DNA of 64,000 bases from Bacteroidia bacterium (GCA_030430385.1 JAUIFO010000008.1:118126-182125); one strand, 5' to 3'. Shown: positions 5,023-45,896, counted from the stretch's first letter. Numbers and translations are program-made. The notes: generated by a model not told the origin, from the letters alone.

Positions 5023-5024
5023 TT

Positions 5025-6044: not shown

Positions 6045-6052
6045 CGCTCTTT

Positions 6053-6376
6053 CTACTTAAATAGATCCATTCCTGGAATATTTGGCATCCCAGCTTTTGC
6101 CACAGCTGCAACTTCAGTTTCGTGAACAGATGTAGCACGTTCAATAGCTTTGTTTAAAGTAAGGATCAAGTAGTCTTCTAACATATCCTTATCACTCAAT
6201 AACTCATCATCTATGTTAATTGCCTTTATTGTTCTGTTGGCAGTAATAGTAACTTTTAGCTTATTGTCGTGACTTGCTTCATCTAATAAGACGCTGTGTA
6301 AACGTTCTTTGGTTTCTTCTACTTTTTTCTGAGCTTCTTTAAGTTTGCCCATCATTCCCATCATATCTCCAAACAT
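6053..6376 (-). CDS. YbaB/EbfC nucleoid-associated protein
   Basis: [26 protein letters not shown]... and the C-terminal PGMDLF are characteristic. The track start at 6406 is a TTG extension, so I trimmed to ATG 6376. Confidence 0.85.
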
Positions 6377-12481: not shown

Positions 12482-12583
12482 AGTGAGTTTGGTTAGGATT
12501 TGTTTCAAATTTAAAAGGAAACCTAAATCGCAAAACAGGAAAGCAATGAAGTTTTTAAGAATTGATTGTTTATAACTTCTAGA

Positions 12584-13246
12584 TTACTGCTGAATACGAC
12601 CATCTACCATAGTAAGTTTTCGGTCTGCCATATTAGCTAACTCCTGATTATGCGTGACAATCACAAAGGTTTGTCCGAATTCATCTCTCAATTTAAAGAA
12701 CAAATTATGAAGTTGTTCAGCAGACTCACTATCTAAATTACCAGAAGGTTCATCGGCAAAAATGATATCGGGATCATTAATTAACGCTCTAGCTACAGCA
12801 ACACGTTGTTGTTCACCACCAGATAACTCATTAGGTTTGTGATGATGGCGTTCACTTAATCCGAGAAAATTAAGTAATTCCTTAGCGCGAGATTCTACAT
12901 CGCTTTGCTTTTTTCCACTTATGAAAGCAGGAATACAAACGTTTTCAAGTGCAGTAAATTCAGGTAGTAATTGATGAAACTGAAAAATAAATCCGATATG
13001 CTTGTTTCTAAATTCTGCTAATGCTTTATCAGCAAGCTTAGACACTTCAATAGCATTGATCAATAGCGAACTTTGTTCTGTAGTATCTATCTTATCTAAA
13101 GTTCCTAAAATTTGAAGCAGCGTTGTTTTTCCAGCACCTGAAGCGCCAACTATAGATACCACTTCACCTTTTTTAATAGACAAGTCAACACCTTTTAGTA
13201 CGTGTAAATCACCATAGTATTTGTGAATTCCTTTTGCAGCTATCAT
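12584..13246 (-). CDS. ABC transporter ATP-binding protein (LolD/MacB-type)
   Basis: Walker [10 protein letters not shown], signature LSGGEQQR and Walker B IIFADEP. I trimmed from TTG 13255 to ATG 13246. Confidence 0.85.
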
Positions 13247-29938: not shown

Positions 29939-30418
29939 TTATGGTGTTGAGTTAAACAAACGATAGGTTAAAACAGACTCTAAGCTAGCATCCTTTTTGC
30001 TAGTACATTTGCAGTGGTCTTGGGTGTCAGCAAAAACAATAGTATTGCAATTAGAAGCAATAGCCATCATTGCATTACGAGATTCTGTAATCACTAAGGT
30101 GTCATTAATAACAACAAGTTCTTCTTTATAAATACCTGCATATAGAGGTGTGTGAAATTCATATTGCAGATACCAACCTTTATCAAGTTCATTTACTAAT
30201 GTAGGATTGATTAATTCGAAATCTTCTGATTTCAATTCAAGAATCCAACTAATTTTAGATTTGATTAAAAGGTTAGATACATCATAATCAGCTAGTGCAT
30301 AAGAGTTGTCAACAGCGTTAGCAATAACATGAATGCGTTCTGAATGACCAACATTTTGAGATGACAAGCAATTATAATTAAAAACAAGAACTAATGTGAA
30401 TAGTAGTATTTTTTTCAT
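29939..30418 (-). CDS. hypothetical exported protein
   Basis: Signal peptide MKKILLFTLVLVFNYNCLSSQ. I recognise no family. It lies 28 nt upstream of the T9SS protease. Confidence 0.45.
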   Translation of the reverse strand: MKKILLFTLVLVFNYNCLSSQNVGHSERIHVIANAVDNSYALADYDVSNLLIKSKISWILELKSEDFELINPTLVNELDKGWYLQYEFHTPLYAGIYKEELVVINDTLVITESRNAMMAIASNCNTIVFADTQDHCKCTSKKDASLESVLTYRLFNSTP

Positions 30419-30664
30419 AATTAAAAAACGATATATATTAATAGTAAAGTTGCTAAGTTAAGCTATTATAATGTTTTATTTGCAATAATTGCTCCATAAA
30501 TCTCTATATAAATGATTATCCTGATAATAAATATCAATTTATAGATATGTTTAAAGATTGATTTTGTTACCTACATACAATTGTTAATTACTTTGTGAAA
30601 ACCCTGTTTTATTATTTAGGACGTTATGTTATATTAGCGTTCTATCTAAATTTTTCATTGATTT

Positions 30665-32524
30665 ATGGCAGAGCAAACCAATTATACCGAAGACAATATA
30701 CGTTCACTAGACTGGAAAGAGCATATTAGAATGCGTCCAGGAATGTATATAGGTAAGTTGGGAGATGGTTCATCACCTGATGACGGTATATATATCTTAC
30801 TTAAAGAGGTTTTAGATAACTCTATTGACGAGTATGTCATGGGAGCTGGTAAAACCATTGAAATTTCTATTCAAGGAAACAAAGTTATCGTTCGTGATTA
30901 TGGACGTGGTATTCCTCTAGGAAAAGTAGTAGATGTAGTTTCTAAAATGAATACTGGTGGAAAATACGATTCAAGAGCTTTCAAGAAATCGGTAGGATTA
31001 AATGGTGTTGGTACAAAAGCTGTTAATGCCTTATCCACTTATTTTAGGGTCGAATCAACTAGAGATGGAAAATCTGCGTCTGCCGAATTTGAGCAAGGGA
31101 CGCTTACGAATGAAGAACTCCTAGATGATACATCAAGACGAAAAGGTACCAAAGTATCTTTTGTTCCTGATAATAGTATTTTTAAAAACTACAAGTACCG
31201 CAATGAGTATGTAGAAAAAATGCTGAAAAACTATGTGTACTTAAACCCAGGTTTAACCATAGTTTTTAATGGAGAGAAATATTACAGTGAGAATGGATTA
31301 AAAGACCTTTTGGCTGAAAATATTACTGAAACAGATCGACTTTATAACATCATTCATCTTAAAGGTGATGATATTGAAGTGGCAATCACACACAGTAAAA
31401 CGCAGTACAGTGAACAATACCATAGTTTTGTAAATGGGCAGAATACCACGCAAGGCGGTACACATTTATCTGCTTTTCGTGAAGCTTTAGTAAAAACCAT
31501 TAGAGAGTTTTTTGGAAAGAATTACGATGCGTCTGACGTTAGAAAATCGGTTGCTTCAGCAATTTCTATCAAGGTTATGGAACCAGTTTTCGAAAGTCAA
31601 ACAAAAACCAAACTCGGTTCTACAGATATGGGAGGCGAACTACCAACTGTAAGAACTTATGTCAATGATTTTATGAAGACCTATCTCGATAATTACCTTC
31701 ATAAAAATCCGGATGTTGCTGAAAAGATTCAAAAGAAGATCCTTCAGGCAGAACGTGAACGAAAAGAACTTTCTGGCATTAGAAAGCTTGCACGAGATCG
31801 TGCCAAGAAAGCGAGTCTTCACAATAAAAAATTAAGGGATTGTCGTGTGCATTTTGGAGACACTAAAAATGAACGAAATCTTGAAACAACCTTATTTATC
31901 ACTGAGGGAGATTCGGCTTCAGGAAGTATTACTAAATCGAGAGACGTCAACACTCAAGCGGTGTTTAGCTTAAAAGGAAAACCTCTGAATTCTTATGGAT
32001 TAAGCAAGAAAATTGTTTATGAAAATGAAGAGTTCAATCTACTACAAGCAGCGCTTAATATTGAAGAGTCACTCGAAGATTTACGCTATAATAATATTGT
32101 AATTGCAACAGATGCTGATGTGGATGGCATGCACATTAGACTCTTGTTAATTACATTCTTTTTGCAATTCTTTCCTGAATTAATCAAGGAAGGTCATTTG
32201 TATATCTTACAAACACCATTGTTTAGAGTACGAAACAAAAAGGAAACCATTTATTGCTATTCCGATGAAGAGCGTCGTAATGCTATAGAGAAACTAAAAC
32301 CAAAACCTGAAATCACACGATTTAAAGGTTTGGGTGAAATTTCTCCTGATGAATTCCAGCACTTTATTGGTGAAGACATCAGATTAGATCCTGTAATGTT
32401 AGATAAGGACATGTCTATTGATGAGTTGCTGTCTTTTTACATGGGAAAAAACACACCAACACGTCAAGAGTTTATTATTGAAAACTTAAAAGTAGAGTTA
32501 GATCTTGTAGACCAAGACGCCTAA
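30665..32524 (+). CDS. parE: DNA topoisomerase IV subunit B
   Basis: GHKL ATPase ([17 protein letters not shown]) and Toprim ([17 protein letters not shown]). The 619-aa short form in an operon with parC is typical of Bacteroidota topo IV. Confidence 0.88.
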
Positions 32525-32587
32525 TCATGATAAAAATCCTTTAACCTTCATTTTTTAAACAATACCAAACTAAACTTAACAACAAGA

Positions 32588-33070
32588 ATGAGAACCAATA
32601 ATTCAAAAACCAAAAATGCAATAATATCTGTATACTTTGTAATTCTCGTTCTTGCTATCGCTGCACCAATCTTTATAAAATCCTTAAGATTGTTTGGTGC
32701 AAATGCTACGATGAGTTCTGTAGTGATTGGAGTGCTATTGATAGGGTTATTTTTCTTAGTGCACTTTATTTGTAGATTTTTTGAATATGATAGTGATGGA
32801 ACAAAGGTGATTGTAACAAATAGAGGGTTATTATTATCTGACTATATGAATTACAGAGAACATGTTGTGGAGTTCGATAAAAAGGACTTAGTGGCTTACA
32901 GTTTTAAAAATTATATCATATACAGAACGCTAACGCTTTATTTGTTAAACTCCAGAGGAAAAAAGCGAAAAGAAACGTTTAACATATCATTAGTTAATAA
33001 AAGAAAACGAAAATACATAAGACAATCATTAAAGAAAATTGTTAAAGCCAACAAAAAAGCTGCTATGTAA
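32588..33070 (+). CDS. small membrane protein embedded in the parE-parC operon
   Basis: Two TM helices, a soluble ~80-aa domain and a polybasic tail (RGKKRKE..NKRKRKYIRQSLKK). Its stop overlaps the parC ATG (TAATG). Confidence 0.5.
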   Translation: MRTNNSKTKNAIISVYFVILVLAIAAPIFIKSLRLFGANATMSSVVIGVLLIGLFFLVHFICRFFEYDSDGTKVIVTNRGLLLSDYMNYREHVVEFDKKDLVAYSFKNYIIYRTLTLYLLNSRGKKRKETFNISLVNKRKRKYIRQSLKKIVKANKKAAM

Positions 33071-35748
33071 TGAGTGAGGAGAATAACGATTTAATTAACA
33101 ACACACCCGAAGATAATAATGAAACGATTACCAGAGTAACTGGTATGTATAAAGACTGGTTTTTGGATTACGCCTCTTATGTAATCCTTGAACGCGCTGT
33201 ACCTGCCATTGAAGATGGTTTCAAGCCTGTGCAACGTCGTATTATGCATTCTATGAAAGATCTGGATGATGGTCGATACAATAAAGTTGCTAATATTGTG
33301 GGGCATACGATGCAGTATCATCCTCATGGCGATGCTAGTATTGCGGATGCTATGGTGCAAATCGGTCAGAAGGATTTGTTGATCGACACACAAGGAAACT
33401 GGGGAAATATTTTAACAGGAGATAGTGCAGCGGCTTCACGTTATATTGAAGCACGTTTGTCTAAGTTTGCTTTAGATGTGGTCTATAACCCTAAAATCAC
33501 AGAATGGCAAGCGAGTTATGATGGCAGACGAAAGGAACCTGTAAACTTACCTGTAATGTTTCCGCTGTTATTAGCGCAAGGTGGAGAAGGAATTGCTGTT
33601 GGTTTGTCTACTAAAATCTTACCACACAATTTTATAGAACTTATAGAGGCTTCTGTGAAGCACTTACAAGGAAAACGTTTTAAACTAGTTCCTGACTTTC
33701 CAACAGCTGGTATTGCGGATTTTACAAATTATAATGATGGCCAACGTGGTGGAAAGGTTCGAGTGAGAGCTAAGATTTCTCAACTTGATAAAAACACATT
33801 AGTCATTACTGAAATCCCTTTCGGAACCAATACGTCTTCATTGATTGATTCCATTCTGAAGGCTAATGATAAAGGAAAGATCAAGATCAAGAAGATTGAA
33901 GACAATACTGCTGCTGATGTTGAAATTTTAGTGCATTTACCTTCTGGAATTTCGCCTGACAAAACGATTGATGCGTTATATGCTTTTACCAATTGTGAGA
34001 CTTCAATTTCACCTTTAGGCTGTGTTATTGAAGATAATAAACCCTTGTTTGTTGGTGTGTCTGAAATGTTACGACGCTCGACTGATAATACGGTTCAATT
34101 ATTAAAAAGTGAGCTGGAGATTAAACTTGGCGAGTATGAGGAGCAATGGCATTTTGCATCCTTAGAACGTATCTTTATTGAAAATAGAATCTATCGCGAC
34201 ATTGAAGAAGAAGAGACTTGGGAAGGTGTAATTCGTGCGATTGACAAAGGACTTCAGCCACATATCAAGCATTTAAAACGTGCAGTTACTGAAGAGGATA
34301 TCGTTCGACTTACCGAAATTAGAATTAAACGTATTTCGAAATTCGATATCGATAAAGCGCAACAAAAAATTGAAGCGCTTGAAGAACAAATTGCTGAAGT
34401 AAAACACCATTTAGCGCATCTTATTGATTATGCCATTGCCTATTTTCAGCGTTTGAAAAAAGAATATGGCGAAGGTCGTGAGCGTAAAACAGAAATTAGA
34501 ACCTTTGAAGATGTCGATGCTACCAAAGTAGTCATTAGAAATACCAAGCTCTATGTCAATAGAGAAGAAGGCTTTATTGGTACATCATTACGACGTGACG
34601 AATACGTATGTGATTGTAGTGATATTGATGATATCATTGTATTTACAAGAGAAGGTAAAATGATGGTAACCAAAGTGGATAGTAAAACCTTTATTGGTAA
34701 AGATATTATTCATGTTGCAGTCTTCAAGAAAAAAGACAAACGAACCATTTATAATATGATCTATCGCGATGGTAGCAAAGGGCCAACTTACGTTAAGCGC
34801 TTTGCTGTGACCTCTGTGACACGTGATCGCGAGTATGATCTAACCAATGGAAACAAAAGCTCAAAGGTTTGGTATTTTTCTGCAAATCCTAATGGTGAAG
34901 CTGAAGTTATAACGGTTTATTTACGACAGGTTGGTAGTATCAAGAAATTGAAATGGGACTTAGATTTCGCTGAAATTCTAATTAAAGGTCGCGCATCTAA
35001 AGGTAACCTGGTAACTAAATATTCGGTTAAAAAGATCGAATTAAAAGAAAAAGGCTTATCAACACTTAAGCCACGCAAGATCTGGTTTGATGATACTGTA
35101 CAACGTTTAAATGTTGATGGTAGAGGTGAACTTGTTGGTGAATTTAGAGGCGAAGATCGTTTGCTAATTATCACGCAATCTGGAATAGTTAAAACCATAC
35201 TTCCAGAACTCACTACACACTTTGATGATGATATGATCGTATTGGAAAAATGGATTCCTAAAAAACCAATTTCTGTAATTTACTTTAATGGTGAACGTGA
35301 GTTGTATTATGTCAAACGTTTCTTGATAGAGAATGAAGGTAAAGAAGAAAGCTTTATCACAGATCATCCAAAATCACAATTAGAAATTGTGTCTACAGAT
35401 TGGAAGCCAATGGCAGAAATTGAATTCACAAAAGAACGTGGTAAAGACAGAAAGGACAACGAAGAAATCAATCTTGAAGAATTTATTGCAGTAAAAGGAA
35501 TTAGCGCTATTGGAAATCAGCTCACTAAAGATAAGATCAATCAGATTAATCTTCTAGAGCCTTTGCCTTATGAAGCGCCTGAAGAGGTCCCAGCTGAAGC
35601 GATTGAAGTGGTTGATGAAACTGACGTGAGTTCTGAGCCTGCAGACGAGACTGCATCAGAAACTCAAAAACCGTCTACAGACACCAAAGCATCATCAGAA
35701 GGTGAAGATCCTAATTTTGATGATTCTGGTCAAGCATCGTTGTTTTGA
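33070..35748 (+). CDS. parC: DNA topoisomerase IV subunit A
   Basis: LDYASYVILERAVPAIEDGFKPVQRRI and the active-site region AASRYIEARL. The C-terminal tail is acidic. Confidence 0.88.
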   Translation: MSEENNDLINNTPEDNNETITRVTGMYKDWFLDYASYVILERAVPAIEDGFKPVQRRIMHSMKDLDDGRYNKVANIVGHTMQYHPHGDASIADAMVQIGQKDLLIDTQGNWGNILTGDSAAASRYIEARLSKFALDVVYNPKITEWQASYDGRRKEPVNLPVMFPLLLAQGGEGIAVGLSTKILPHNFIELIEASVKHLQGKRFKLVPDFPTAGIADFTNYNDGQRGGKVRVRAKISQLDKNTLVITEIPFGTNTSSLIDSILKANDKGKIKIKKIEDNTAADVEILVHLPSGISPDKTIDALYAFTNCETSISPLGCVIEDNKPLFVGVSEMLRRSTDNTVQLLKSELEIKLGEYEEQWHFASLERIFIENRIYRDIEEEETWEGVIRAIDKGLQPHIKHLKRAVTEEDIVRLTEIRIKRISKFDIDKAQQKIEALEEQIAEVKHHLAHLIDYAIAYFQRLKKEYGEGRERKTEIRTFEDVDATKVVIRNTKLYVNREEGFIGTSLRRDEYVCDCSDIDDIIVFTREGKMMVTKVDSKTFIGKDIIHVAVFKKKDKRTIYNMIYRDGSKGPTYVKRFAVTSVTRDREYDLTNGNKSSKVWYFSANPNGEAEVITVYLRQVGSIKKLKWDLDFAEILIKGRASKGNLVTKYSVKKIELKEKGLSTLKPRKIWFDDTVQRLNVDGRGELVGEFRGEDRLLIITQSGIVKTILPELTTHFDDDMIVLEKWIPKKPISVIYFNGERELYYVKRFLIENEGKEESFITDHPKSQLEIVSTDWKPMAEIEFTKERGKDRKDNEEINLEEFIAVKGISAIGNQLTKDKINQINLLEPLPYEAPEEVPAEAIEVVDETDVSSEPADETASETQKPSTDTKASSEGEDPNFDDSGQASLF

Positions 35749-35755
35749 TTTAATT

Positions 35756-36487
35756 ATGCACGCTTACAGTAACATCGATACAGAATTTGGATTTAACAAT
35801 GAAGCCTTGTTTTTGGGATTACCAGAACATGTTTGTTCTATTTTAAAATCTAATATGTCTTCGATACAGTATAAAGCTGGAGATTATATTTTCAAAGAAT
35901 ATGACCAGCCTTTAGGTATTTACAGGGTGTCTTCAGGTAAGGTTAAAAAATTGACTACTACAGATTTCGGAACAGAGCATATATTTTATATCTGTAAGCA
36001 AAAAGAATTCTTAGGTTATCATGCAGTTATAAGTCAAGAAAAATATGCTGATTCAGCTGTAGCATTGGTGGATAGCTCTATTGATTTTATACCAATCAAA
36101 GACTTTCAGCGTGCAATGGAAGCTTCAAACGAATTGATACAGCGTTTATTAAAAACGCTAAGCCATGAATTTAGAGTCTATATTAATGCTACTAAGATAT
36201 TGGCTAAATATACTGTTAGAGAACGTACTGCACTAAACCTACTAATACTTGAATGCAAATTTAGAAGTGGTACTCAAGATCAAACCGAAATCATCATAAC
36301 TCGTGATAATTTAGCAAATATGGTAGGAACTGCTAAAGAATCTCTTGTGAGAACACTAAAAGAATTTAAGGACGATAATTTAATTTCCACTAATAGGAGT
36401 AGTATTTTTATTAAGGATTATAAAAAGTTATTAAAAGTATCATGCTTTAATAAACCTCAAGTTGATAAATATCAATATAAGATTTAA
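35756..36487 (+). CDS. Crp/Fnr family transcriptional regulator
   Basis: cNMP-binding-like beta-roll, then an HTH (RDNLANMVGTAKESLVRTLKEFKDDNLI). I trimmed the track start 35702, which overlapped parC, to ATG 35756. Confidence 0.75.
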   Translation: MHAYSNIDTEFGFNNEALFLGLPEHVCSILKSNMSSIQYKAGDYIFKEYDQPLGIYRVSSGKVKKLTTTDFGTEHIFYICKQKEFLGYHAVISQEKYADSAVALVDSSIDFIPIKDFQRAMEASNELIQRLLKTLSHEFRVYINATKILAKYTVRERTALNLLILECKFRSGTQDQTEIIITRDNLANMVGTAKESLVRTLKEFKDDNLISTNRSSIFIKDYKKLLKVSCFNKPQVDKYQYKI

Positions 36488-36553
36488 AGTTGTTTTCCGT
36501 TATTATCAATAATATTGAATATTATATAATAACCAATTTTGAATTTAAAACGT

Positions 36554-36991
36554 ATGAAATGTCTTGTTTCTTTTGTATTGCTATTCTTTATCCAAACATC
36601 CTTAGTGAACGCTCAAGATTGGATTACCAATTTTGACGAAGCTAAAGCGATAGCTAAAGCAGATCAAAAGCCTATTATTTTAGTATTTCAAGGATCTGAT
36701 TGGTGTGCACCTTGTATCAAATTAGAGAAAGAAATATTGAGTACATCAACGTTTCAAAATTATGCCAAATCGCATTTTGTGATGCTTCAAGCTGATTTTC
36801 CTAAAAGAAAAAATAACAAGTTATCTGATGAGCAACAAGCTCATAACAATGCGCTTGCCGAAACGTATAATAAAAATGGTTTTTTTCCTTATGTTGTGAT
36901 TTTAGATGCAAATGGAAAAATGCTAGGTTCTACTGGATATAAAAAGATGTCGCCTTCAGATTATATTGATTTGTTGAACTCATTTAAATAG
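36554..36991 (+). CDS. exported thioredoxin-fold protein (WCAPC)
   Basis: Signal peptide MKCLVSFVLLFFIQTSLVNAQ and redox motif GSDWCAPC. Confidence 0.75.
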   Translation: MKCLVSFVLLFFIQTSLVNAQDWITNFDEAKAIAKADQKPIILVFQGSDWCAPCIKLEKEILSTSTFQNYAKSHFVMLQADFPKRKNNKLSDEQQAHNNALAETYNKNGFFPYVVILDANGKMLGSTGYKKMSPSDYIDLLNSFK

Positions 36992-36996
36992 GAATT

Positions 36997-37980
36997 TTGA
37001 AACAGTTTATTGCAATAGTTCTTACATTAATTTCTGTTGTTGCTCTTGAAGCGCAAGAGACTCATAAACGTGTTTTGAAGTTAATGGGAAGTCGTTTTGA
37101 GATTACTGTGGTGGCTAAAGATTCTATTGAAGCGAGTTCATATATCGATTTAGCTATAACCGAAATTTCTAGGATAGAGGCTTTAATTTCATCTTGGGAT
37201 GAAAACTCACAAACTTCTAAAATAAATTTAAATGCAGGAATACAACCTGTAAAGGTTAATCAAGAGCTCTTTGATTTGATTGAGCGTTCAATAAAAATTT
37301 CTGAATTGACTGATGGTGCATTTGATATTTCCTACGCTTCTATGGATCGTATATGGAAATTTGATGGCTCTATGACTCAAATGCCTTCAGAGATAGATAT
37401 TAAAAATTCTGTTGCAAAAGTTGGTTTTAAAAATATAGTCCTTAATAAAGAAAACACAACAGTTTACTTGAAACATGAAGGAATGCGAATTGGTTTTGGA
37501 GCTATAGGAAAAGGTTATGCCGCAGATAAAGCCAAAATGTTATTACAAGATAAAGGTGTTAAGTCTGGTATAATCAATGCTTCAGGTGATATGACTACTT
37601 GGGGAAAACAAATTAATGGAGAGGATTGGAAAGTTGCTATCACTAATCCTCTAAATAAGCACAAAGCTTTTGCGTTGTTACCAGTTAAAAAAGGAGCTGT
37701 TGTAACTTCAGGAAATTATGAAAAATTCGTCACTTTTAATGATAAGCGTTATACACACATCATTGATCCTAGAACGGGTTATCCTTCATCAGGAATTATA
37801 AGTGTAACTGTATTTGCACCAAAAGCTGAGCTTGCTGATGCTTTGTCAACTTCAGTTTTTGTTATGGGAAAAGAAGTTGGTTTGAATAGAATCAATCAAC
37901 TACCTAACATAGAATGTATCATTATTGATGATCAAGGACAAATAATAACATCAACTAATATTAAAATTAATAAAATATGA
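36997..37980 (+). CDS. apbE: FAD:protein FMN transferase
   Basis: ApbE motifs GAIGKGYAADKA, ASGD and HIIDPRTG, with a signal peptide. The apparent start is TTG; the next in-frame ATG would delete the signal peptide. Confidence 0.85.
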   Translation: MKQFIAIVLTLISVVALEAQETHKRVLKLMGSRFEITVVAKDSIEASSYIDLAITEISRIEALISSWDENSQTSKINLNAGIQPVKVNQELFDLIERSIKISELTDGAFDISYASMDRIWKFDGSMTQMPSEIDIKNSVAKVGFKNIVLNKENTTVYLKHEGMRIGFGAIGKGYAADKAKMLLQDKGVKSGIINASGDMTTWGKQINGEDWKVAITNPLNKHKAFALLPVKKGAVVTSGNYEKFVTFNDKRYTHIIDPRTGYPSSGIISVTVFAPKAELADALSTSVFVMGKEVGLNRINQLPNIECIIIDDQGQIITSTNIKINKI

Positions 37981-38189
37981 CTAAGAGGATTTTAATGGTA
38001 ATCGTTACGCTTTTAAGCTTGTCTTCTTGTGTTGCTGTAAAGGAATATGAGAAGGTTAATCTGAATGATCCTGATATGTTGTTGGCGGAAAAGAAATCTG
38101 ATAGAAATATATCAACATTTCATTCATACAGAGAAGCTGCGTCTGGTGGTAATGGAGGAAAGACAGGTGGAGGTTGTGGTTGTAACTAA
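37977..38189 (+). CDS. small lipoprotein, DUF4266-like, C-terminal GGGCGCN
   Basis: Lipobox LSLSSC. The 70-aa protein ends in ASGGNGGKTGGGCGCN. Its start overlaps the apbE stop (ATGA). Confidence 0.6.
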   Translation: MTKRILMVIVTLLSLSSCVAVKEYEKVNLNDPDMLLAEKKSDRNISTFHSYREAASGGNGGKTGGGCGCN

Positions 38190-38203
38190 TTATTGATAAC
38201 GAT

Positions 38204-39511
38204 TTGAAAAAGATACTAACCCTATTGTTTTGCTGTTATGCGTGTCAGTTTTACGCGCAAGATTCAACTGCTACCTACAAGAAGCGCGTGCTTGAAACTA
38301 CTGAAATAGATTTCTTAACAAGCTATTATACTCAAGATGGAGAGAATGCTGCTGTTAGTGGTGGTATTGGAACTGAAGAACTTAGTGATGTGACAGCTGC
38401 TTTTGTGGTATCGATTCCTTTAAATGACGATGATGTACTTACTATTGACGCAGGTATTTCTGCATATACTTCAGCGTCATCGAGTAATGTTGGTCCTTTT
38501 GATTCTAGTGGTAGAGCTAACCCTTATGACGCGAGTACTGGAGCTTCCCAAGGTGATGTTTGGGCAAATATAACAGGAACTTATTCGCATAGTTCTGATG
38601 ATAGAAATGACATCTGGTCTGCCAAATTATCGATATCAACAGAGTATGATTACTTTTCGGCTGGTGTAGGCGGAAGTTATACGAAATTATTGAATGAAAA
38701 AAATACTGAGTTAAGTATTAATGGTAATGTTTTTATTGACTCTTGGAATGCATTATACCCAACAGAGTTACGACCATTTGCCGATGGAGGAGACGGATTA
38801 AACAATGTGTTGTTTAATCAGTATATGATATCAGGAAACCCTAATTATAACCCAAATTTTTCTGAGTTTGATAGTGAAGGACGAAATACTTACAGTCTTG
38901 GATTTGGATTTTCTCAGATCATGTCTAAAAAACTTCAAGGGTCATTAGCACTTGATTTAGTAATGCAGGATGGTTTATTATCGACACCTTTTCAGCGAGT
39001 TTATTTTTTAGATGTGGCAGATTCTTTTATTGAAGATTTTCATTTGGCGGATGATATAGAAAGACTCCCAGACTCGCGCTTTAAAGTAGCAATAGGAGGA
39101 CGACTTCATTATTATATAAATGAAACATTTGTGTTGCGAACATTTTACAGGTACTATTTTGATGATTGGGGAATTGCATCTCATACAGCTAGTTTAGAAG
39201 TTCCAATCAAGCTAACAGATAAGTTTACAATCTATCCATCGTACAGATTTTATACACAAACTGCAGCAGATTATTTTGCACCTTACAATACACATTTGTC
39301 TACAGATGAGTTTTATACTTCTGATTATGATTTGTCAGATTATAGTGCTAATCAATTTGGGTTTGGAGTAAGTTATACGGATATCTTTACTAAATTCCAT
39401 ATATACAAATTTGGATTAAAAAGTATAGACTTAAAGTTTACGCAATATGACAGAAACAACTCGCTAAGTGCTAGTATGTTTTCAGCAGGTTTCAAATTTA
39501 TTATGGACTAA
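38204..39511 (+). CDS. predicted outer-membrane beta-barrel protein, DUF3570-like
   Basis: Signal peptide MKKILTLLFCCYACQFYAQ and alternating-hydrophobic strands throughout. The start is TTG. It completes the Trx-ApbE-DUF4266 gene order. Confidence 0.6.
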   Translation: MKKILTLLFCCYACQFYAQDSTATYKKRVLETTEIDFLTSYYTQDGENAAVSGGIGTEELSDVTAAFVVSIPLNDDDVLTIDAGISAYTSASSSNVGPFDSSGRANPYDASTGASQGDVWANITGTYSHSSDDRNDIWSAKLSISTEYDYFSAGVGGSYTKLLNEKNTELSINGNVFIDSWNALYPTELRPFADGGDGLNNVLFNQYMISGNPNYNPNFSEFDSEGRNTYSLGFGFSQIMSKKLQGSLALDLVMQDGLLSTPFQRVYFLDVADSFIEDFHLADDIERLPDSRFKVAIGGRLHYYINETFVLRTFYRYYFDDWGIASHTASLEVPIKLTDKFTIYPSYRFYTQTAADYFAPYNTHLSTDEFYTSDYDLSDYSANQFGFGVSYTDIFTKFHIYKFGLKSIDLKFTQYDRNNSLSASMFSAGFKFIMD

Positions 39512-40305
39512 TTTGCTTTTTGTTTCCGCTTTGCGGCTTTGTAGTTTAAAAATTCTACAAACAATGAAAACGCAATAGCGAAATATAAATACCCTTTAGG
39601 AATAGCGCCAACCTGATTTCCGAAGAATGCTGTATGCGATAAATGTGCAGCTTCAGTGACAAGCATAAATCCTATAAGAATTAAAAAGGCTAGTCCGAGC
39701 ATCTGTATACTTGGATTCTTTTCTATGAATTTACGAATTGGATTAGCAAAGCCTATCATAATGATAATCGAGATCACTACAGCAATGATCATTAATACTA
39801 AGGTGTAATTATGATTAGGATGTAATCCATTGGTCATTCCAACAGCCGTTAAAATAGAATCGATTGAAAAAATAAAATCAATAATCAAAATTTGAGTTAA
39901 TGCCTGGGATAAGGAAGTGATTTTTTTTCCGCGAACCTGATCTTCATCATGCTCTGGAGTATTTACTTTTTCTCTAATTTCAGACGTACTTTTGTAAATT
40001 AAAAACAATCCACCTACAAATAAAATAATGGCTTGCCAACTTATGTGGAGTTCAATCCAAGAGTTTTCTAAAGAAAAAAACGGTTTCGATAATCCTACTA
40101 AAAAGGACACAAAAAATAACAAAACGATGCGTTGCACCATAGCTAACAGTAATCCAATATTTGTAGCTTTACCTCTTTGGTGTTCAGGAAGTTTATTGGC
40201 TGCTATTGAGATAAACACAATATTATCGATGCCCAAAACAATTTCTAAAAAGGTTAAGGTCAATAAGGCAATAATAGCATCACTCGTGAGTAAAAACTCT
40301 ATCAT
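39508..40305 (-). CDS. TerC family integral membrane protein
   Basis: LGIDNIVFISIAANKLP and a second repeat IDFIFSIDSILTAVG. There are 7 or more TM segments. Confidence 0.85.
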   Translation of the reverse strand: MIEFLLTSDAIIALLTLTFLEIVLGIDNIVFISIAANKLPEHQRGKATNIGLLLAMVQRIVLLFFVSFLVGLSKPFFSLENSWIELHISWQAIILFVGGLFLIYKSTSEIREKVNTPEHDEDQVRGKKITSLSQALTQILIIDFIFSIDSILTAVGMTNGLHPNHNYTLVLMIIAVVISIIIMIGFANPIRKFIEKNPSIQMLGLAFLILIGFMLVTEAAHLSHTAFFGNQVGAIPKGYLYFAIAFSLFVEFLNYKAAKRKQKAN

Positions 40306-40306
40306 T

Positions 40307-40693
40307 TTAGTTTATTTTTTTTGCAGTTCCTTTCTCAATACGTGCTTTCTTGTATGGATCTTTAACTGCTAGTTGGTATTCAAAGGTGTAAGTATCTTCA
40401 GTGGTACTTAAGATTTTAAAGTGTATGGCTTTTTCTTCGGCAATAGATTTTGGGTGTAAAGCTTTTTGAATAAACTCACAATCGTTGATCCAGCGCACTG
40501 AAGCAGAATCAACCTTATTTTCAAAATAATCAATGTTTAAGTCTTCAGTTCTTTTAAATGTACCTGTTTGTTCCTTGCCATCAATAGTGTAGGTGAATTC
40601 AAACGTACCAGTTTTGAAATCGTTACAATGACGTTGCGGTTCATAACAACTCAATAACATAAGGCACACTAAAAGACTTAAAAGACATCTCAT
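40307..40693 (-). CDS. hypothetical lipoprotein
   Basis: Lipobox CLMLLSC when started at ATG 40693. The longer track ORF would overlap the upstream HTH gene by 86 nt. Confidence 0.5.
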   Translation of the reverse strand: MRCLLSLLVCLMLLSCYEPQRHCNDFKTGTFEFTYTIDGKEQTGTFKRTEDLNIDYFENKVDSASVRWINDCEFIQKALHPKSIAEEKAIHFKILSTTEDTYTFEYQLAVKDPYKKARIEKGTAKKIN

Positions 40694-40754
40694 TTTTAAA
40701 GTTTTGTCAAAATTACAAAATGAGAATCGTGTATTTGATAAATTGTATTTAAAA

Positions 40755-41126
40755 TTATGAATTATTGAAGTTTTGAAAGGTACCATCCTTGTAAAAAATA
40801 ACAATACGTTCAATAGTTTTTTCTGAAGAAGTAGTGACATTGTTATGATCTATTTCTGAAGATCTAGAACTAGTTTCAATAATCTCTTCTTTAATCGGAA
40901 CTTTTGGAAATGATCCTTTGCCATTCATGAGCCAATACAATTCGACTTCAGGAAAAGAGGAGAGGACTTTCAAAACAAAATCTAAACTCGGTTTATTTCT
41001 TCCTGAAAGTATATGAGAAATACTAGAACGTTGCACACCAATTTTTTCAGCAAAAGACGATGCAGATTCATTGTAATATTCCATCACTTTTTGGAGTCGT
41101 TTTGTAAAATCTTCGGTGTTTATCAT
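40755..41126 (-). CDS. XRE-family helix-turn-helix protein
   Basis: N-terminal HTH: SASSFAEKIGVQRSSISHILSGRNKPSLDFVLKV. Confidence 0.7.
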   Translation of the reverse strand: MINTEDFTKRLQKVMEYYNESASSFAEKIGVQRSSISHILSGRNKPSLDFVLKVLSSFPEVELYWLMNGKGSFPKVPIKEEIIETSSRSSEIDHNNVTTSSEKTIERIVIFYKDGTFQNFNNS

Positions 41127-41404
41127 TGTAAACAGTATTAGACGCGTAGTTTATGATACAAATGTAAACATAATTAGGTTTATTCGCTAAACAATATTAC
41201 TTAATATAAATAATATATTGAATAATAACTTTATGTTTTAATATTTAAATAATTGATAATAAATAATATAAATTAATAATTTTGTTTGTATTGAATATTT
41301 CGCAATGATAATTGTGTAGATTAGGTGTTAGTTCTCCTATTTGTTGAATATTGTAACTTCATAAAGTTAAATTTTGTGTTTACAAATGTGAATTTCAATT
41401 TATT

Positions 41405-41412
41405 TACCTTTG
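41405..41412 (+). promoter_or_regulatory. candidate -7 box TACCTTTG
   Basis: Exact TAnnTTTG, 20 nt upstream of ATG 41432. Confidence 0.45.
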
Positions 41413-41431
41413 TGATTAAGAACTGAAGTTT

Positions 41432-42571
41432 ATGCAAATAGATCACCTTAATCATCTCTTTGATACTTATAAAGAATCATCATTATTTGGACGCTATATT
41501 CATACAGATTCCATTGCGCCTTTATTAGAAAAACGATCTTTAAAAAAATACGTGTCTCAAATCGGAACTTCTGTAAATGCAATTTCAATTTATGATATCA
41601 CCATTGGAAGTGGGCCAAAACATATTTTATTTTGGTCTCAAATGCATGGTAATGAAAGCACGACAACTAAAGCTTGCTTTGATCTTTTAAACACCTTATT
41701 GGCTTCAGATCAGATTTCCGAACAAATTCTTAAGCAATGCACTATTAAAATCATTCCAATTTTAAATCCTGATGGTGCAAAGGCTTACACGAGACTTAAT
41801 GCAAATGGGATTGATCTAAATAGAGATGCGCAACATTTGTCGCAACCTGAGAGTAAAGTGTTGCGACAGGTTTTTGATACGTTTAAACCTCAATTTTGCT
41901 TTAATCTTCATGGTCAACGTACAATTTTTAGTGCTGGCAATATCAATAAACCAGCAACAGTATCATTTCTAGCACCTGCACAAGATGAGGCTTGTACAGT
42001 TACTGAAACTAGAAAAGTTGCAATGGAACTCATTTCAGTTTTAAATCGAAACTTACAATTACAAATTAAAGACCAGATAGGGATTTATGATGATGCTTTT
42101 AATTTGAATTGTGTTGGTGATACTTTTCAAAGTTTAAATGTGCCTACGATTTTATTTGAGGCTGGGCATTTTCAAAACGATTATCATAGAGAAGTAACTC
42201 GAAAATTTATTTACCAGTCGTTAGTGTTGGCTTTGCATACCATTGCAACACATGATATTGATGGAAGCAATTATGAAGCGTATTTTGATATTCCTGAAAA
42301 CAAAAAGTTATTTTTTGATATTCTTATCAGGAATACTTCCGAAGGTGATATGGCTATACAATATGTAGAAAAATGTATAGATGATCAGATAGCATTTGTA
42401 CCAACAATTGAAAAAATAGGGGACTTATCCTCTTATTTTGGTCATATTGAATATGAGGCCAATGGTTTTAAGGTGTTTGATTCAAAAAAAGTACCTGTAC
42501 AAGAGCATAACGAAATCGATTTCGTGTGTATAAATAATGAAAAATTCTCATTGAAATTGAAAAAAAACTAG
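41432..42571 (+). CDS. M14-family zinc carboxypeptidase-like protein (cytosolic)
   Basis: Zinc-binding HxxE in WSQMHGNESTT, NPDG, DLNRD and a distal LHG. I see no signal peptide. Confidence 0.7.
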   Translation: MQIDHLNHLFDTYKESSLFGRYIHTDSIAPLLEKRSLKKYVSQIGTSVNAISIYDITIGSGPKHILFWSQMHGNESTTTKACFDLLNTLLASDQISEQILKQCTIKIIPILNPDGAKAYTRLNANGIDLNRDAQHLSQPESKVLRQVFDTFKPQFCFNLHGQRTIFSAGNINKPATVSFLAPAQDEACTVTETRKVAMELISVLNRNLQLQIKDQIGIYDDAFNLNCVGDTFQSLNVPTILFEAGHFQNDYHREVTRKFIYQSLVLALHTIATHDIDGSNYEAYFDIPENKKLFFDILIRNTSEGDMAIQYVEKCIDDQIAFVPTIEKIGDLSSYFGHIEYEANGFKVFDSKKVPVQEHNEIDFVCINNEKFSLKLKKN

Positions 42572-42603
42572 GTTTTTGTACATTATCTTCACTCTTTTTA
42601 CGT

Positions 42604-42611
42604 TAATTTTG
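42604..42611 (+). promoter_or_regulatory. candidate -7 box TAATTTTG
   Basis: Exact TAnnTTTG, 25 nt upstream of ATG 42636. Confidence 0.45.
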
Positions 42612-42635
42612 TATAAAATTTAAAGAAACTGGAAA

Positions 42636-43115
42636 ATGGCAAAATACAAATTAGATGAAATAGATCACCAGATTTTAGATATGTTGATCGATAATACACG
42701 AATTCCGTTTACTGATATTGCAAAAAAATTGGTGATTTCAGCTGGAACGGTTCACGTACGTGTTAAGAAAATGGAAGAAGCTGGAATTATTAAAGGCTCG
42801 TCATTAACTTTAGACTACAAGAAACTCGGATATTCATTTATCGCTTATGTTGGTGTATTTTTAAATAACACATCGCAAACTAAATTTGTATTAGAACGCA
42901 TTCAGGATATTCCTTACGTGACTGTTGCTCATATCACAACAGGAAAGTTTAATATTTTCTGTAAGGTAAGAGCTAAAGACACGTCTCACGCTAAAGATAT
43001 CATATTCATGTTAGATGATATTGAAGGAATATATCGCACCGAAACTATGATTTCGTTAGAAGAGAGTATTAATGATAAAAAACGATTAATGCACACTATT
43101 TTTAACGAACTATAA
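42636..43115 (+). CDS. Lrp/AsnC family transcriptional regulator
   Basis: LDEIDHQILDMLIDNTRIPFTDIAKKLVISAGTVHVRVKKMEEAGII followed by a RAM-type ligand domain. Confidence 0.9.
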   Translation: MAKYKLDEIDHQILDMLIDNTRIPFTDIAKKLVISAGTVHVRVKKMEEAGIIKGSSLTLDYKKLGYSFIAYVGVFLNNTSQTKFVLERIQDIPYVTVAHITTGKFNIFCKVRAKDTSHAKDIIFMLDDIEGIYRTETMISLEESINDKKRLMHTIFNEL

Positions 43116-43149
43116 CTTAACGCTAGTAACTATTTTAACATTTATTAAG

Positions 43150-43181
43150 CCCTTTGTCTTTAATCGATAAAGGGTTTTTTA
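43150..43181 (+). terminator. rho-independent terminator
   Basis: CCCTTTGTC / GATAAAGGG stem (one G-U pair) with a 7-nt loop, then TTTTTT. Confidence 0.7.
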
Positions 43182-43206
43182 ATTTAAGAACAAACACAAA
43201 AATACT

Positions 43207-43722
43207 ATGACAATAGCTGATTTAAACACTATGGAATACAATACATATTATCAAACTTATATAGATAAAGTGGATCACACTGAATTGGTGTCTGGTTTGA
43301 TATCTAGTAATGCAAAATTTTCTGCTTTTTTAGAAGCCATACCTGAAGCTAAATTTGATTTTGCTTATGCTGAAGGCAAATGGACGATCAAAGAAGTGGT
43401 ACAGCATATTATTGACACAGAGCGTGTGTTTTCGTATAGAGCCATGTGTATCGCTAGGAAGGAGCAAGTAGAATTACCTGGATTTGATCAGGATGATTAT
43501 GTCTTAACGAGTAATGCTAATGAGAGAACTAAACAGAGTTTACTGAACGAATTGCGAGTATTAAGACAGTCTTCTGTAGCGTTATTTGATAGTTTGTCAA
43601 ATGATGCCTTACAACGAATAGGAACAGCCAATGGCAATCCCATTTCTGTAAGAGCATTAGGATTCATTCTTATTGGTCACGAAAACCATCATTCTGAAGT
43701 AATAAAAGAACGTTATTTATAA
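43207..43722 (+). CDS. DinB family protein
   Basis: Four-helix DinB pattern with His residues spaced as in the family (VVQHIIDTE ... GHENHH). Confidence 0.75.
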   Translation: MTIADLNTMEYNTYYQTYIDKVDHTELVSGLISSNAKFSAFLEAIPEAKFDFAYAEGKWTIKEVVQHIIDTERVFSYRAMCIARKEQVELPGFDQDDYVLTSNANERTKQSLLNELRVLRQSSVALFDSLSNDALQRIGTANGNPISVRALGFILIGHENHHSEVIKERYL

Positions 43723-43760
43723 AAAAAAGCCATCATAATTATGATGGCTTTTAATTTTTA
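43723..43760. terminator. bidirectional rho-independent terminator
   Basis: Palindrome AAGCCATCATAA / TTATGATGGCTT, flanked by an A-run and T-rich sequence. It lies between convergent genes. Confidence 0.8.
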
Positions 43761-43770
43761 AGTTTAGGAT

Positions 43771-44265
43771 TTAGAATTGATATCTAATTCCGAGTGCAAT
43801 ATCAAAATCTAGATCGTTTGTATCAAAATCGTCATTACCGAAACCAATTTCTGGTCTAAAGTCTAATGACAATAATAAGGGAATATCAAAATTGTATTCA
43901 ATACCAATATCTCCAGCAGCAAATATAAAGGTATCACTGTCGTCAACACCTCTAGGAACATTATCTACACTTATAGAACCAATTCCTCCACCAGCACCAA
44001 CATACCAATTAAAATTCCCGTCAAGTTGCCATACCCATTGGTACAATCCTGCTAGTTTAAAAGCATCATACTTGCTGCCATCTCTCCAGCCTAGATCTAA
44101 TTCTAATCTATTATTTTCGCCTAATGCACGTTGGTAATTTATTCCAGGTCCAACACCATCACTATCTCCTAGACGAAGACCGATAGCATTTTTTGAAATA
44201 TCTTGAGCGTTAGAAAAAGCTACAAATCCAAAAATACCAAGTGCTACTAAACATAATTTCCTCAT
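43771..44265 (-). CDS. small outer-membrane beta-barrel protein (OmpA-like/OmpW-like 8-strand type)
   Basis: Signal peptide MRKLCLVALGIFGFVAFSNAQ, alternating strands and a C-terminal aromatic (GIRYQF). Confidence 0.7.
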   Translation of the reverse strand: MRKLCLVALGIFGFVAFSNAQDISKNAIGLRLGDSDGVGPGINYQRALGENNRLELDLGWRDGSKYDAFKLAGLYQWVWQLDGNFNWYVGAGGGIGSISVDNVPRGVDDSDTFIFAAGDIGIEYNFDIPLLLSLDFRPEIGFGNDDFDTNDLDFDIALGIRYQF

Positions 44266-44439
44266 AAAATTTTAAGTTTTTTTAGTTATTAATTAATTGA
44301 TTAATGAAGTGTGACCACTTCTTGAAGTTTATTGATGATACAAAAATAAGACCAAAACAGACTTACTATTGAAGTTTTTTTAACATTTATAGTATATACG
44401 TTTTGTTTTAACATATAGATTTCTAAACCAAAATTTTAA

Positions 44440-44447
44440 TAATTTTG
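44440..44447 (+). promoter_or_regulatory. candidate -7 box TAATTTTG
   Basis: Exact TAnnTTTG, 58 nt upstream of ATG 44505. Confidence 0.35.
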
Positions 44448-44504
44448 AATTCATAAGCTTTATTTTAATTTTTGATTTAAAAAGCTGTTATCTTGTCTTC
44501 AATT

Positions 44505-45896
44505 ATGGAAAAACTCATTACGGATTTCTTAGATATTCTCAATCATGAACAAGTGCTTACAGGTGACGATTTAAAATCGCGTTACCATCATATTTGGCAT
44601 ATGGATAAGCCTTTAAAGGTTAAAGCGCTATTACTTCCTGAATCTACTGAGCAAGTCTCAGAAATTATGAAAATTTGCCATAAAAATGATCAGCCTGTTA
44701 TTGTGTTTGGTGGACTCACTAATTTAGTTGGAAGTACCGAAACCTTAGAGCGAGATGTTGTAATTTCGATGGAGCGTATGACTACTATTGAAGCTCCTGA
44801 TTTGCAAAGTAGAACCATAACCGTTGAAGCAGGAGCCATACTAGAAAATGTTCAGCAAAAAGTTTCTGATGCTGGTTTACTGTTTCCTTTAAATTATGGT
44901 GCTAAAGGTTCTGCTCAAATAGGAGGAGCTATTTCTACTAACGCTGGAGGCTTACAAGTAATACGCTATGGGATGACTCGAAATCTGGTACTCGGACTAG
45001 AAGTTGTTCTTGCTGATGGTACGATATTATCGTCCTTAAAAACCATTATTAAAGACAACTCAGCTTATGATCTAAAGCAGTTATTTGTTGGTTCGGAAGG
45101 CACTTTAGGAATCGTTACCAAAGCGGTTTTAAAATTGGTGGAAGCTCCAAAAAGTCGCGTCAGTGCTTTTGTTGGTATAAACGATTTTTCTAAAGTTGTT
45201 GAATTTATGCGCTTTGTAGATCAAGGTCTAGCAGGTACCTTAAGTAGCTATGAATTGATCTGGAAAACGTCTTTTATAACCTTAACTAAAGATCCTTCGG
45301 TTGAGCGTTCTCCTTTACCTTATTATTATAATTATTACATTTTATTAGAGGGCTTGGGAAGTGATCAAAATGTAGATCAACAGCGTTTAGAACACCTTCT
45401 TGAAGAAGCCCTTCACCAAGAGATGATATTAGATGCAACACTTGCGTATTCTCAATCGGAATTGAATTGGTTTTGGCGCATTCGTGAAAATGTTGATGCT
45501 TTAGTTGCTGTATGTCAGTTTGACCAGCATTTTGATATTAGTTTACCCATTCACAGTATTGGAGACACTATAGCTTCAATGACAGAACAATTGGAACAAG
45601 TAGAAGGTGTCACTCATGTGTTTCCATTTGGACATGTAGGTGATGGAAATATTCATTTCATCATTGGTAAAACTTCAGAAGCAGACACACTTAGAAAACG
45701 CATCAATGCTATTGTTTATGAGCCAATCAAATCTTTAGGTGGTTCGGTTTCAGCAGAGCATGGTATCGGACTCCACAAAAAAGCATATTTGCATTTGTGT
45801 AGAACCGAAGCAGAAATAGCTGTGATGATTCAGATTAAAAAAACCTTAGATCCAAAAAATATTCTTAATAGAGGCAAAGTGTTAGACTTGAACTAA
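44505..45896 (+). CDS. FAD-linked oxidase (GlcD / D-lactate dehydrogenase family)
   Basis: PCMH-type FAD-binding domain (VIVFGGLTNLVG, GGAISTNAGG), then a C-terminal oxidase domain (SAEHGIGLHK). Confidence 0.85.
   Translation: MEKLITDFLDILNHEQVLTGDDLKSRYHHIWHMDKPLKVKALLLPESTEQVSEIMKICHKNDQPVIVFGGLTNLVGSTETLERDVVISMERMTTIEAPDLQSRTITVEAGAILENVQQKVSDAGLLFPLNYGAKGSAQIGGAISTNAGGLQVIRYGMTRNLVLGLEVVLADGTILSSLKTIIKDNSAYDLKQLFVGSEGTLGIVTKAVLKLVEAPKSRVSAFVGINDFSKVVEFMRFVDQGLAGTLSSYELIWKTSFITLTKDPSVERSPLPYYYNYYILLEGLGSDQNVDQQRLEHLLEEALHQEMILDATLAYSQSELNWFWRIRENVDALVAVCQFDQHFDISLPIHSIGDTIASMTEQLEQVEGVTHVFPFGHVGDGNIHFIIGKTSEADTLRKRINAIVYEPIKSLGGSVSAEHGIGLHKKAYLHLCRTEAEIAVMIQIKKTLDPKNILNRGKVLDLN

Follow-up and report, generated by a model that had tools for sequence, protein, structure and literature searches.

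Within a 64,000-nucleotide (nt) stretch of DNA from Bacteroidia bacterium (GCA_030430385.1 JAUIFO010000008.1:118126-182125; hereafter the window), four genes on the + strand between positions 36554 and 39511 encode a thioredoxin-fold protein (Trx), ApbE, which is a flavin adenine dinucleotide (FAD):protein flavin mononucleotide (FMN) transferase, a DUF4266 lipoprotein and a 435-amino acid (aa) DUF3570 protein. The host was placed in the Flavobacteriaceae near Psychroserpens, where the best DUF3570 identities were 82–87%. A first-pass annotation, made from the sequence alone, had described four exported proteins encoded back to back with a 5-nt gap and an ATGA overlap, and the open reading frames (ORFs), gene junctions, Pfam matches and translations all bore this out at the coordinates it had given.

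The first gene, Trx (36554..36991), encodes an exported thioredoxin-fold protein of the Thioredoxin_7 family, DsbH-like (Pfam PF13899, E 4.6e-16). Its stop codon is TAG at 36989-36991, and 5 nt later ApbE (36997..37980; PF02424, E 2.1e-85, a full-length match to positions 1-266/266) starts with TTG at 36997. The ApbE stop overlaps the start of DUF4266 (37977..38189; PF14086, E 8.1e-19) in the ATGA at 37977-37980. DUF4266 ends with TAA at 38187-38189, and 14 nt on DUF3570 (38204..39511; PF12094, E 2.2e-41), the ApbE substrate of the set and a predicted outer-membrane (OM) beta-barrel, starts with TTG at 38204. The export signals ascribed to all four proteins were found on translation: the N-terminal signal peptides of Trx, ApbE and DUF3570 end at a type-I site between A and Q, and DUF4266 carries a lipoprotein signal. 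The database gene call for DUF3570 (428 aa) begins at 38225, 7 codons downstream of TTG 38204. We preferred the longer form because it restores a normal signal peptide (MKKILTLLFCCYACQFYA, followed by Q) and matches orthologue lengths of 437–438 aa.

Relation to a published gene cluster

This system is already known, both as a gene cluster and as a pair of ApbE and substrate. Starting from "orphan" apbE genes, Méheust et al. (2021, eLife 10:e66878; PMC8238504) recognized a new substrate of ApbE in DUF3570, which carries two conserved [S/T]GA[S/T] motifs. DUF3570 from Chlorobium luteolum underwent flavinylation in E. coli by its cognate ApbE, and flavinylation was abolished only when both motif serines were replaced with Ala (PMC8238504). 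DsbD, ApbE, DUF3570, a PF13899 thioredoxin-like protein and DUF4266 occurred together in 227 clusters, the same four genes without a neighboring DsbD in a further 316 (543 in all) and VIT1 in 25 of the published clusters. The authors noted that the conserved CXC of DUF4266 is possibly redox-cycling and proposed a hybrid thioredoxin/flavin electron transfer fed by DsbD, leaving its function uncertain (PMC8238504).

The window locus has the same four Pfam families and differs from this cluster in nothing essential: the export signals are present, including that of ApbE, DUF3570 has two motifs, the PF13899 Trx contains WCAPC and DUF4266 ends in a CXC. The trait that defines the "DsbD system" proper, DsbD itself (PF02683), is absent from the window, where we found neither a DsbD or CcdA nor any DsbD-like polytopic Cys protein; the polytopic ORFs numbered only two, one for an SDF symporter and one for an RDD protein. 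We therefore placed the locus among the 316 clusters without DsbD, and it is very likely a standard member of the published ApbE/DUF3570/PF13899/DUF4266 extracytosolic electron-transfer cluster, in the subclass with no co-located DsbD. The first-pass annotation had seen no recognizable flavinylation substrate in the operon and would count as refuted should the barrel turn out to belong to a characterized system. Both points go against it, as DUF3570 is itself a tested ApbE substrate and the exact four-family cluster is the one in PMC8238504. A literature search for functional data under other names found nothing.

Gene order was compared in related loci, one genome per species, by a scan seeded with 20 closer sequences. 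At least 587 loci had relatives and 80 were taken, all Bacteroidota-like and of at least 52% identity. Enough upstream flank was available for 75 Bacteroidota loci, of which all 75 had Trx, 74 had ApbE and 74 had DUF4266, without any change of order or strand. Three distant metagenomic homologues (L082, L083, L085) showed the identical order at 30–34% identity and, together with PMC8238504, form the basis for synteny across phyla. The idea of a conserved flavin/thiol module, for which the first-pass annotation had proposed a synteny test of the four families, was thus upheld by a near-perfect synteny. No other neighbor family, including DsbD, VIT1 and TonB receptors, was found in more than 15 of the 80 loci, which makes the module a self-contained four-gene unit.

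The active site of Trx, WCAPC, is encoded at 36701-36715, and its signal peptide ends in ...LVNA, followed by QD. Its best NCBIfam match was DsbH (NF043050) with 100.5 bits, under the 190-bit cutoff, and it is not filed as DsbH; the other NCBIfam matches were DsbD-type domains, likewise under their cutoffs. The closest solved relative was also DsbH (2JU5, E 1.9e-21). WCxPC was present in 74 of 75 Trx orthologues, as WCAPC in 65. The active site, the solved relative and the DsbH- and DsbD-type matches together suggest that Trx is reductase-like. It has in common with chlamydial DsbH, a periplasmic disulfide reductase (2JU5), the Trx fold and a reductase-like CxxC, and differs from it in falling under the DsbH equivalog cutoff and in its ApbE/DUF3570 context.

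ApbE aligned with solved FAD:protein FMN transferases (7ESA, 1VRM, 4XGW and others) at E-values from 2.8e-46 (7ESA, best) to 4.6e-25. It fell below the cutoff of the E. coli-type NCBIfam equivalog (143.7 versus 498 bits) and is thus a member of the family, not an E. coli-type orthologue. Its signal peptide is MKQFIAIVLTLISVVALEA, followed by QE (i.e. ...LEA before QE). The exception among the 75 loci, in an uncultured Aquimarina (L039), has full flanks and encodes Trx, DUF4266 and DUF3570 with no ApbE between them; an ApbE encoded elsewhere may serve this copy.

In DUF4266 the lipobox LSSC is encoded at 38019-38030, with Cys18 at 38028-38030, and the Gly-rich tail GGNGGKTGGGCGCN at 38145-38186, in which CGC (38175-38183) is followed by Asn. 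We compared 79 sequences, namely the window protein and 78 orthologues from the related loci. C18, N59-G60-G61 and GGGCGCN (64-70) were invariant in 79/79, and so was most of the segment Y-R-E-x-x-x-G-A-N-G-G-K-[TS] ahead of GGGCGCN; the window protein has GGNGG where 76/79 have GANGG. The CGC dithiol beside a thioredoxin gene, pointed out in the first pass, is therefore real and invariant. Its AASGG segment, taken there as a candidate flavinylation site, fared differently: Ser56 varies between Ser, Ala and Val (36, 26 and 16 sequences of the 79), so that this position cannot be a conserved flavin acceptor. DUF4266 had no sequence relative in the Protein Data Bank (PDB).

Predicted flavinylation sites and fold of DUF3570

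In the canonical ApbE motif, D-x-x-[S/T]-G-A-[S/T], the last residue carries the FMN, and substitution of the Asp has a minor effect only (PMC12052999). A phmmer search of the whole library with DUF3570 gave 1758 representative clusters (50% identity) at E <= 0.001, from which 104 full-length diverse representatives with 29–65% identity were aligned. Three conserved segments (m1, m2 and m3) were found in the N-terminal quarter. The first, m1, is AAVSGGIGTE (residues 49-58; 38348..38377, + strand; consensus SAV[TS]GGxG[TS]E), in which G54 was invariant and V51, G53 and G56 were conserved in more than 90% of the representatives. The second, m2, is SAYTSAS (residues 86-92 with the core TSAS at 89-92; 38459..38479, + strand; consensus D-x-Y-[TS]-S-A-S), with A91 and S92 invariant and S90 conserved in more than 90%. 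The third, m3, is TGASQGD (residues 112-118; family consensus [ST]-[SG]-A-S-x-x-D), with S115 conserved in more than 90%. Its core TGAS (112-115) closes the stretch D109-A-S-T-G-A-S115 (38528..38548, + strand), a perfect match to the canonical motif.

No ApbE-type motif other than m2 and m3 is conserved in the family, which agrees with the two sites of PMC8238504, and we therefore predict FMN on S92 (site 1) and S115 (site 2) of the window protein. The segment AAVSGGIGT, which had been put forward as a flavinylation site, corresponds to m1; it forms a separate loop of invariant length without a G-A-[ST] core, and the true motifs are TSAS (89-92) and TGAS (112-115). This loop, L1, was exactly 14 residues long in 104/104 DUF3570 sequences, with a mean conservation of 0.74. 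In the C. luteolum homologue, changing just the two [S/T]GA[S/T] serines removed flavinylation, which argues against L1 as a site (PMC8238504). The L1 motif may instead be a glycine-rich element for packing a cofactor or the loop itself. The A-[AV]-S-G-G segment that had seemed common to the barrel and the lipoprotein was lost at the family level, where the consensuses SAVTGGxGT and AAxGANGG are unrelated.

AlphaFold2 with the 104-sequence alignment modeled DUF3570 with 16 long beta-strands (predicted local distance difference test 90.5, predicted template modeling (TM) score 0.86). All of the 50 listed Foldseek matches were OM barrels (FadL, OmpG, OprD/Occ, AlgE, TodX, chitoporin) with a probability of 1.00; their TM-scores were only 0.35–0.44, which points to a generic barrel fold with no close solved relative. 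DUF3570 had no sequence relative in the PDB. The even-numbered inter-strand connections were tight turns of 2–4 residues with the exception of T7 (10 residues in the query, against a median of 14 and a range of 4–23 in the family), and five of the eight odd-numbered connections (L1, L2, L4, L5 and L7) were long loops of 14–44 residues in the query. Among the long loops L1 alone was invariant, the family lengths being 14–62 residues for L2, 16–130 for L4, 22–65 for L5 and 26–56 for L7.

The strands also showed the expected periodicity in sequence. The dyad hydrophobicity contrast within strands was 2.05 versus 1.02 ± 0.19 in shuffled sequences, and none of 2000 shuffles reached 2.05. The polar strand face was the more conserved (0.57 versus 0.34), and its near-invariant residues were R120, R227, R292, K294, R300, R312, R316, R348, R411, R417, D118, E147, D179, D320 and E332. 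As regards an aromatic-ended beta-signal, the query ends in ...GFKFIMD and the family C-termini were heterogeneous (LGFVF, LNFEF, KLVLD and others). DUF3570 is thus confidently predicted to be a 16-stranded OM beta-barrel with a conserved, Arg-rich lumen face; AlphaFold2, Foldseek and sequence periodicity all back the barrel that had been proposed in the first pass for the 435-aa protein. The C. luteolum DUF3570 was recovered from the insoluble pellet in E. coli (PMC8238504), as would be expected for an OM protein expressed without a signal peptide.

In the model, m1 fills L1, m2 is located where strand 3 passes into loop L2 and m3 where L2 passes into strand 4. Both FMN sites would accordingly be at the ends of L2, either on the extracellular face formed by the long loops or folded into the barrel mouth or lumen. 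The literature searched does not describe DUF3570 as an OM barrel, nor does it state an OM location or a trans-membrane role for it.

Regulator and neighboring genes

Immediately upstream of the operon is a gene for a Crp/Fnr-family regulator (35756..36487, + strand; cNMP_binding, E 1.1e-13, and HTH_Crp_2, E 1.4e-12). It has only four Cys residues, at 27, 79, 176 and 236, lacks the N-terminal Cys cluster of FNR and missed all NCBIfam equivalog cutoffs (58.8 versus 228 bits for the Fnr model); it is a generic member of the family. The neighbor noted in the first pass is therefore present, but it does not belong to the module: a Crp/Fnr gene was found beside the operon in only 2 of the 80 loci (L001 and L002), both from Psychroserpens, and is a genus-level add-on.

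A perfect FNR/CRP-type palindrome, TTGATAAATATCAA (TTGAT-N4-ATCAA; 36462..36475), is situated 92 nt upstream of the Trx ATG, over the final codons of the Crp/Fnr ORF, and is the sole match in the window. Its count alone is not significant (1 versus 0.46 expected, with at least one match in 34% of shuffles). It was, however, kept exactly, in an island of ~27 nt within otherwise diverged DNA, only in L001 and L002, where the regulator is also present; it is at -72 from the Trx ATG there, a spacing that differs by 20 nt (two helical turns). This co-conservation with the regulator in the same lineage gives the palindrome meaning, and it probably serves the adjacent regulator as its operator. The adjacent Crp/Fnr protein appears to control the operon through the TTGAT-N4-ATCAA box, in this lineage only. 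A Bacteroidetes -7-like box, CAATTTTG (36534-36541), was found downstream of the palindrome. A scan for sigma-70 promoters and terminators gave 35 sites versus 29.5 expected.

Directly upstream of the regulator are housekeeping neighbors, topoisomerase IV-like genes of the GyrB/ParE and GyrA/ParC types (30665-35748, + strand); synteny of the ParC-type gene with the module was found in Psychroserpens only. Further upstream, a matrixin-like metalloprotease with a Por_Secre_tail of the type IX secretion system (T9SS) is encoded at 28648-29910 (- strand). Downstream, a gene for a TerC/YkoY-YjbE-like membrane protein (39508-40305, - strand) converges on DUF3570 with overlapping stop codons, and is kept beside the module in Psychroserpens only (3 loci of 80). 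Despite the 'R_switched' names of NCBIfam models, an Rfam scan of positions 30000-45000 found no riboswitch or other RNA, including a yybP-ykoY element upstream of TerC. In the region 40307-41126 (- strand), a 177-aa ORF without a Pfam match and a 123-aa HTH_3 (XRE-type) ORF upstream of it have 86 nt in common. If the 177-aa ORF began at an internal Met, it would have a lipoprotein-like leader, MRCLLSLLVCLMLLSC, and the annotated start is probably too far upstream.

Several further associations were seen in the related loci. In 14 loci of the Muricauda/Flagellimonas clade (L044, at 5845-6285, and 13 others), an exported 147-aa Rieske [2Fe-2S] protein with a Tat-like or lipoprotein leader is encoded directly upstream of Trx on the same strand. 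This could be a clade-specific redox partner or a matter of housekeeping synteny, with purM, glnA and prfA nearby. In L082, a DUF2271 gene (4908-5681) is inserted between Trx and ApbE; its product, from another class of ApbE substrates, has a T9SS Por_Secre_tail and the sequence DAITGST. Another DUF2271/T9SS protein, with DAVSGAS, is encoded 4 kb downstream (12083-12940), adjoining a DUF5777 gene. Such a partner was found in only 1 of 85 loci, and hints at cell-surface flavoproteins linked to the module. In 8–12 of the 80 loci, from several genera, an AcrB-family RND pump-OEP fusion of ~1445 aa, a CusB-type adaptor and an OmpR-type two-component system were found within 8 kb (L009 623-4963, L004 258-1424, L030 3537-5578 and similar), a weak association of the module with metal efflux. 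Some genomes have two DUF3570 paralogues, such as P0021 and P0113 on one contig of Psychroserpens ponticola.

Proposed electron flow and alternative explanations

We favor a reductive direction of electron flow through this system. Electrons would come, as in the 227 published clusters, from an inner-membrane DsbD or CcdA, here encoded elsewhere, and enter the exported WCAPC thioredoxin, a DsbH-like protein that would hand them to the CGC dithiol borne by DUF4266 on its flexible Gly-rich tail. From there they would pass to the FMNs of DUF3570 and leave to an acceptor at or beyond the OM. The FAD-dependent attachment of FMN by ApbE to two DUF3570 serines is experimental, on the homologue (PMC8238504). 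Modification of the C. luteolum substrate took place in the cytoplasm of E. coli, and the protein was recovered in non-native form, so flavinylation probably comes before barrel assembly in vivo. There is a weak suggestion of Fe(III) or other metals as the terminal acceptor, from VIT1 in 25 published clusters and from the CusB, RND and two-component genes near 8–12 of the 80 loci. A tentative extension, which we regard as possible but doubtful, is that DUF3570 acts as a "flavo-porin" in which two covalent FMNs, placed in the mouth or lumen of the barrel, would conduct electrons across the OM, fed from DsbD through Trx and a DUF4266 CGC tail that threads into the barrel.

Several points count against the favored account of a flavinylated DUF3570 and a reductive relay. 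At the first predicted FMN site, m2 departs from the canonical motif with Ser for Gly at -2 and Ser for Asp at -6; it does keep the [ST]-x-A-[ST] core, and the Ser that stands in for Gly is invariant in the family. The window sites were matched to the mutated C. luteolum serines by motif alone and not residue by residue. Their placement at the ends of L2 is based on the secondary-structure (DSSP) string of the AlphaFold2 model and the usual rule for OM proteins, by which the termini are periplasmic and the long loops point outward. With no DsbD in the 64-kb window, the electron source is assumed, and we infer both the relay order from Trx through CGC to FMN and the direction of flow.

The reverse direction would make the module a sulfhydryl oxidase of the Erv2/Ero1 type, in which dithiols of Trx or its substrates would be oxidized through the CGC tail and the FMNs by O2 or another oxidant to form disulfides in the outer envelope. 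Yeast Erv2p has a C-terminal CGC shuttle beside its flavin, which the invariant CGC on a flexible Gly-rich tail resembles, and both the mostly aerobic, marine habit of the host family Flavobacteriaceae and the absence of DsbD from the locus would fit. We nevertheless consider it unlikely, given the reductase-type WCAPC of Trx, its best relatives among DsbH and DsbD gamma-like domains, and the 227 published clusters that are co-located with DsbD, a supplier of reductant. Another explanation is metal handling, where the CGC tail and Trx would bind or reduce a thiophilic metal (Cu, Ag, Hg) or Fe(III), the barrel would be its passage through the OM and the flavins a metal reductase. CXC motifs are known metal ligands, and the CusB-type adaptor, RND-OEP fusion and OmpR-type two-component system near the module speak for it. 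Their association, however, is limited to at most 15% of the loci and differs among these in distance and orientation, and nothing metal-related adjoins the operon in the window save the convergent TerC gene, itself conserved in Psychroserpens only. On balance metal handling has a small chance of being the primary role, and it is compatible with reductive electron flow as its terminal step rather than exclusive of it.

The two remaining explanations concern the substrate of ApbE. That the operon is an unassigned module in which the A-[AV]-S-G-G segments AAVSGGIGT and AASGGNGG are novel flavinylation sites is very improbable: both segments exist and that of the barrel is strongly conserved, but DUF3570 is already a tested substrate through two [S/T]GA[S/T] motifs, which are present at 89-92 and 112-115, whereas L1 has no G-A-[ST] core, the DUF4266 Ser is replaced by Ala or Val in roughly half of the orthologues and the two consensuses are unrelated. 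Coincidental adjacency, in which ApbE would act on a Na+-NQR or RNF complex encoded at a distance and the DUF products would be envelope proteins of no relation to it, is hardly credible. NqrB/C and RnfD/G are the classical ApbE clients, and in the Aquimarina locus L039 an ApbE encoded elsewhere presumably substitutes for the missing gene. Against this, ApbE is found between Trx and DUF4266 in 74 of 75 loci, the reading frames overlapping or abutting, experiment shows DUF3570 to be flavinylated by its cognate ApbE and canonical motifs are conserved in DUF3570. The first-pass remark that nothing Nqr/Rnf-like is nearby agreed with our results in that the window contains no nqr- or rnf-like polytopic multi-gene membrane operon. 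Neither FMN_bind, NqrB/C nor RnfD/G was found among the operon and its neighbors, although not all of the 56 window ORFs were profile-scanned and a small FMN-bind protein is possible.

Reductive electron flow through a flavinylated barrel has partial likenesses among known systems. Mobile C-terminal redox tails beside flavins are found in Erv2p (CGC) and in mammalian thioredoxin reductase (GCUG). They resemble DUF4266 in placing a di-Cys on a flexible Gly-containing C-terminal tail, presumed to shuttle between a thioredoxin-fold partner and a flavin. In the present case the tail (lipoprotein) and the flavin (OM barrel) are on separate polypeptides with no homology to those enzymes, and phosphoester-attached FMN takes the place of bound FAD. 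In Listeria, the FmnB/PplA system also uses an ApbE-family transferase (7ESA) to flavinylate an exported lipoprotein that passes electrons outward. It differs in being Gram-positive, with no outer membrane or barrel, in its FMN_bind-domain substrate and in drawing electrons from the quinone pool via EetA/EetB/Ndh2 instead of a thiol relay.

The Cyc2, MtrAB and Pcc conduits would be alike, at the level of hypothesis only, in combining an OM beta-barrel with a covalent redox cofactor at or in the lumen, and Cyc2 is, as DUF3570 would be, a single-polypeptide barrel (PMC8406198). Their cofactor is heme c where phosphoester-linked FMN is proposed for DUF3570, and their donors are periplasmic cytochromes where a thiol relay is proposed here. 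They have no sequence or close structural kinship with DUF3570, for which trans-OM transfer is hypothetical.

Within this window the locus itself carries little weight, as one more copy of a cluster cataloged in hundreds of genomes with a biochemically demonstrated substrate. What is added here to the published cluster is the prediction of a 16-strand OM barrel, the FMN motifs at the ends of L2 and a lineage-specific Crp/Fnr regulator with an operator-like box. The remaining interest is in the physiological role and in the prediction of an OM barrel with FMN sites at its mouth. If true, the flavo-porin would be a heme-free flavin/thiol analogue of Cyc2 and the MtrAB porin-cytochromes, and would open a new route of extracellular reduction, for example of Fe(III), to aerobic marine Bacteroidota as well as to many other diderms. 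If borne out, the architecture would represent the first redox conduit in an outer membrane to be based on flavin, and direct tests of what a widespread pair of DUF proteins does would become possible.

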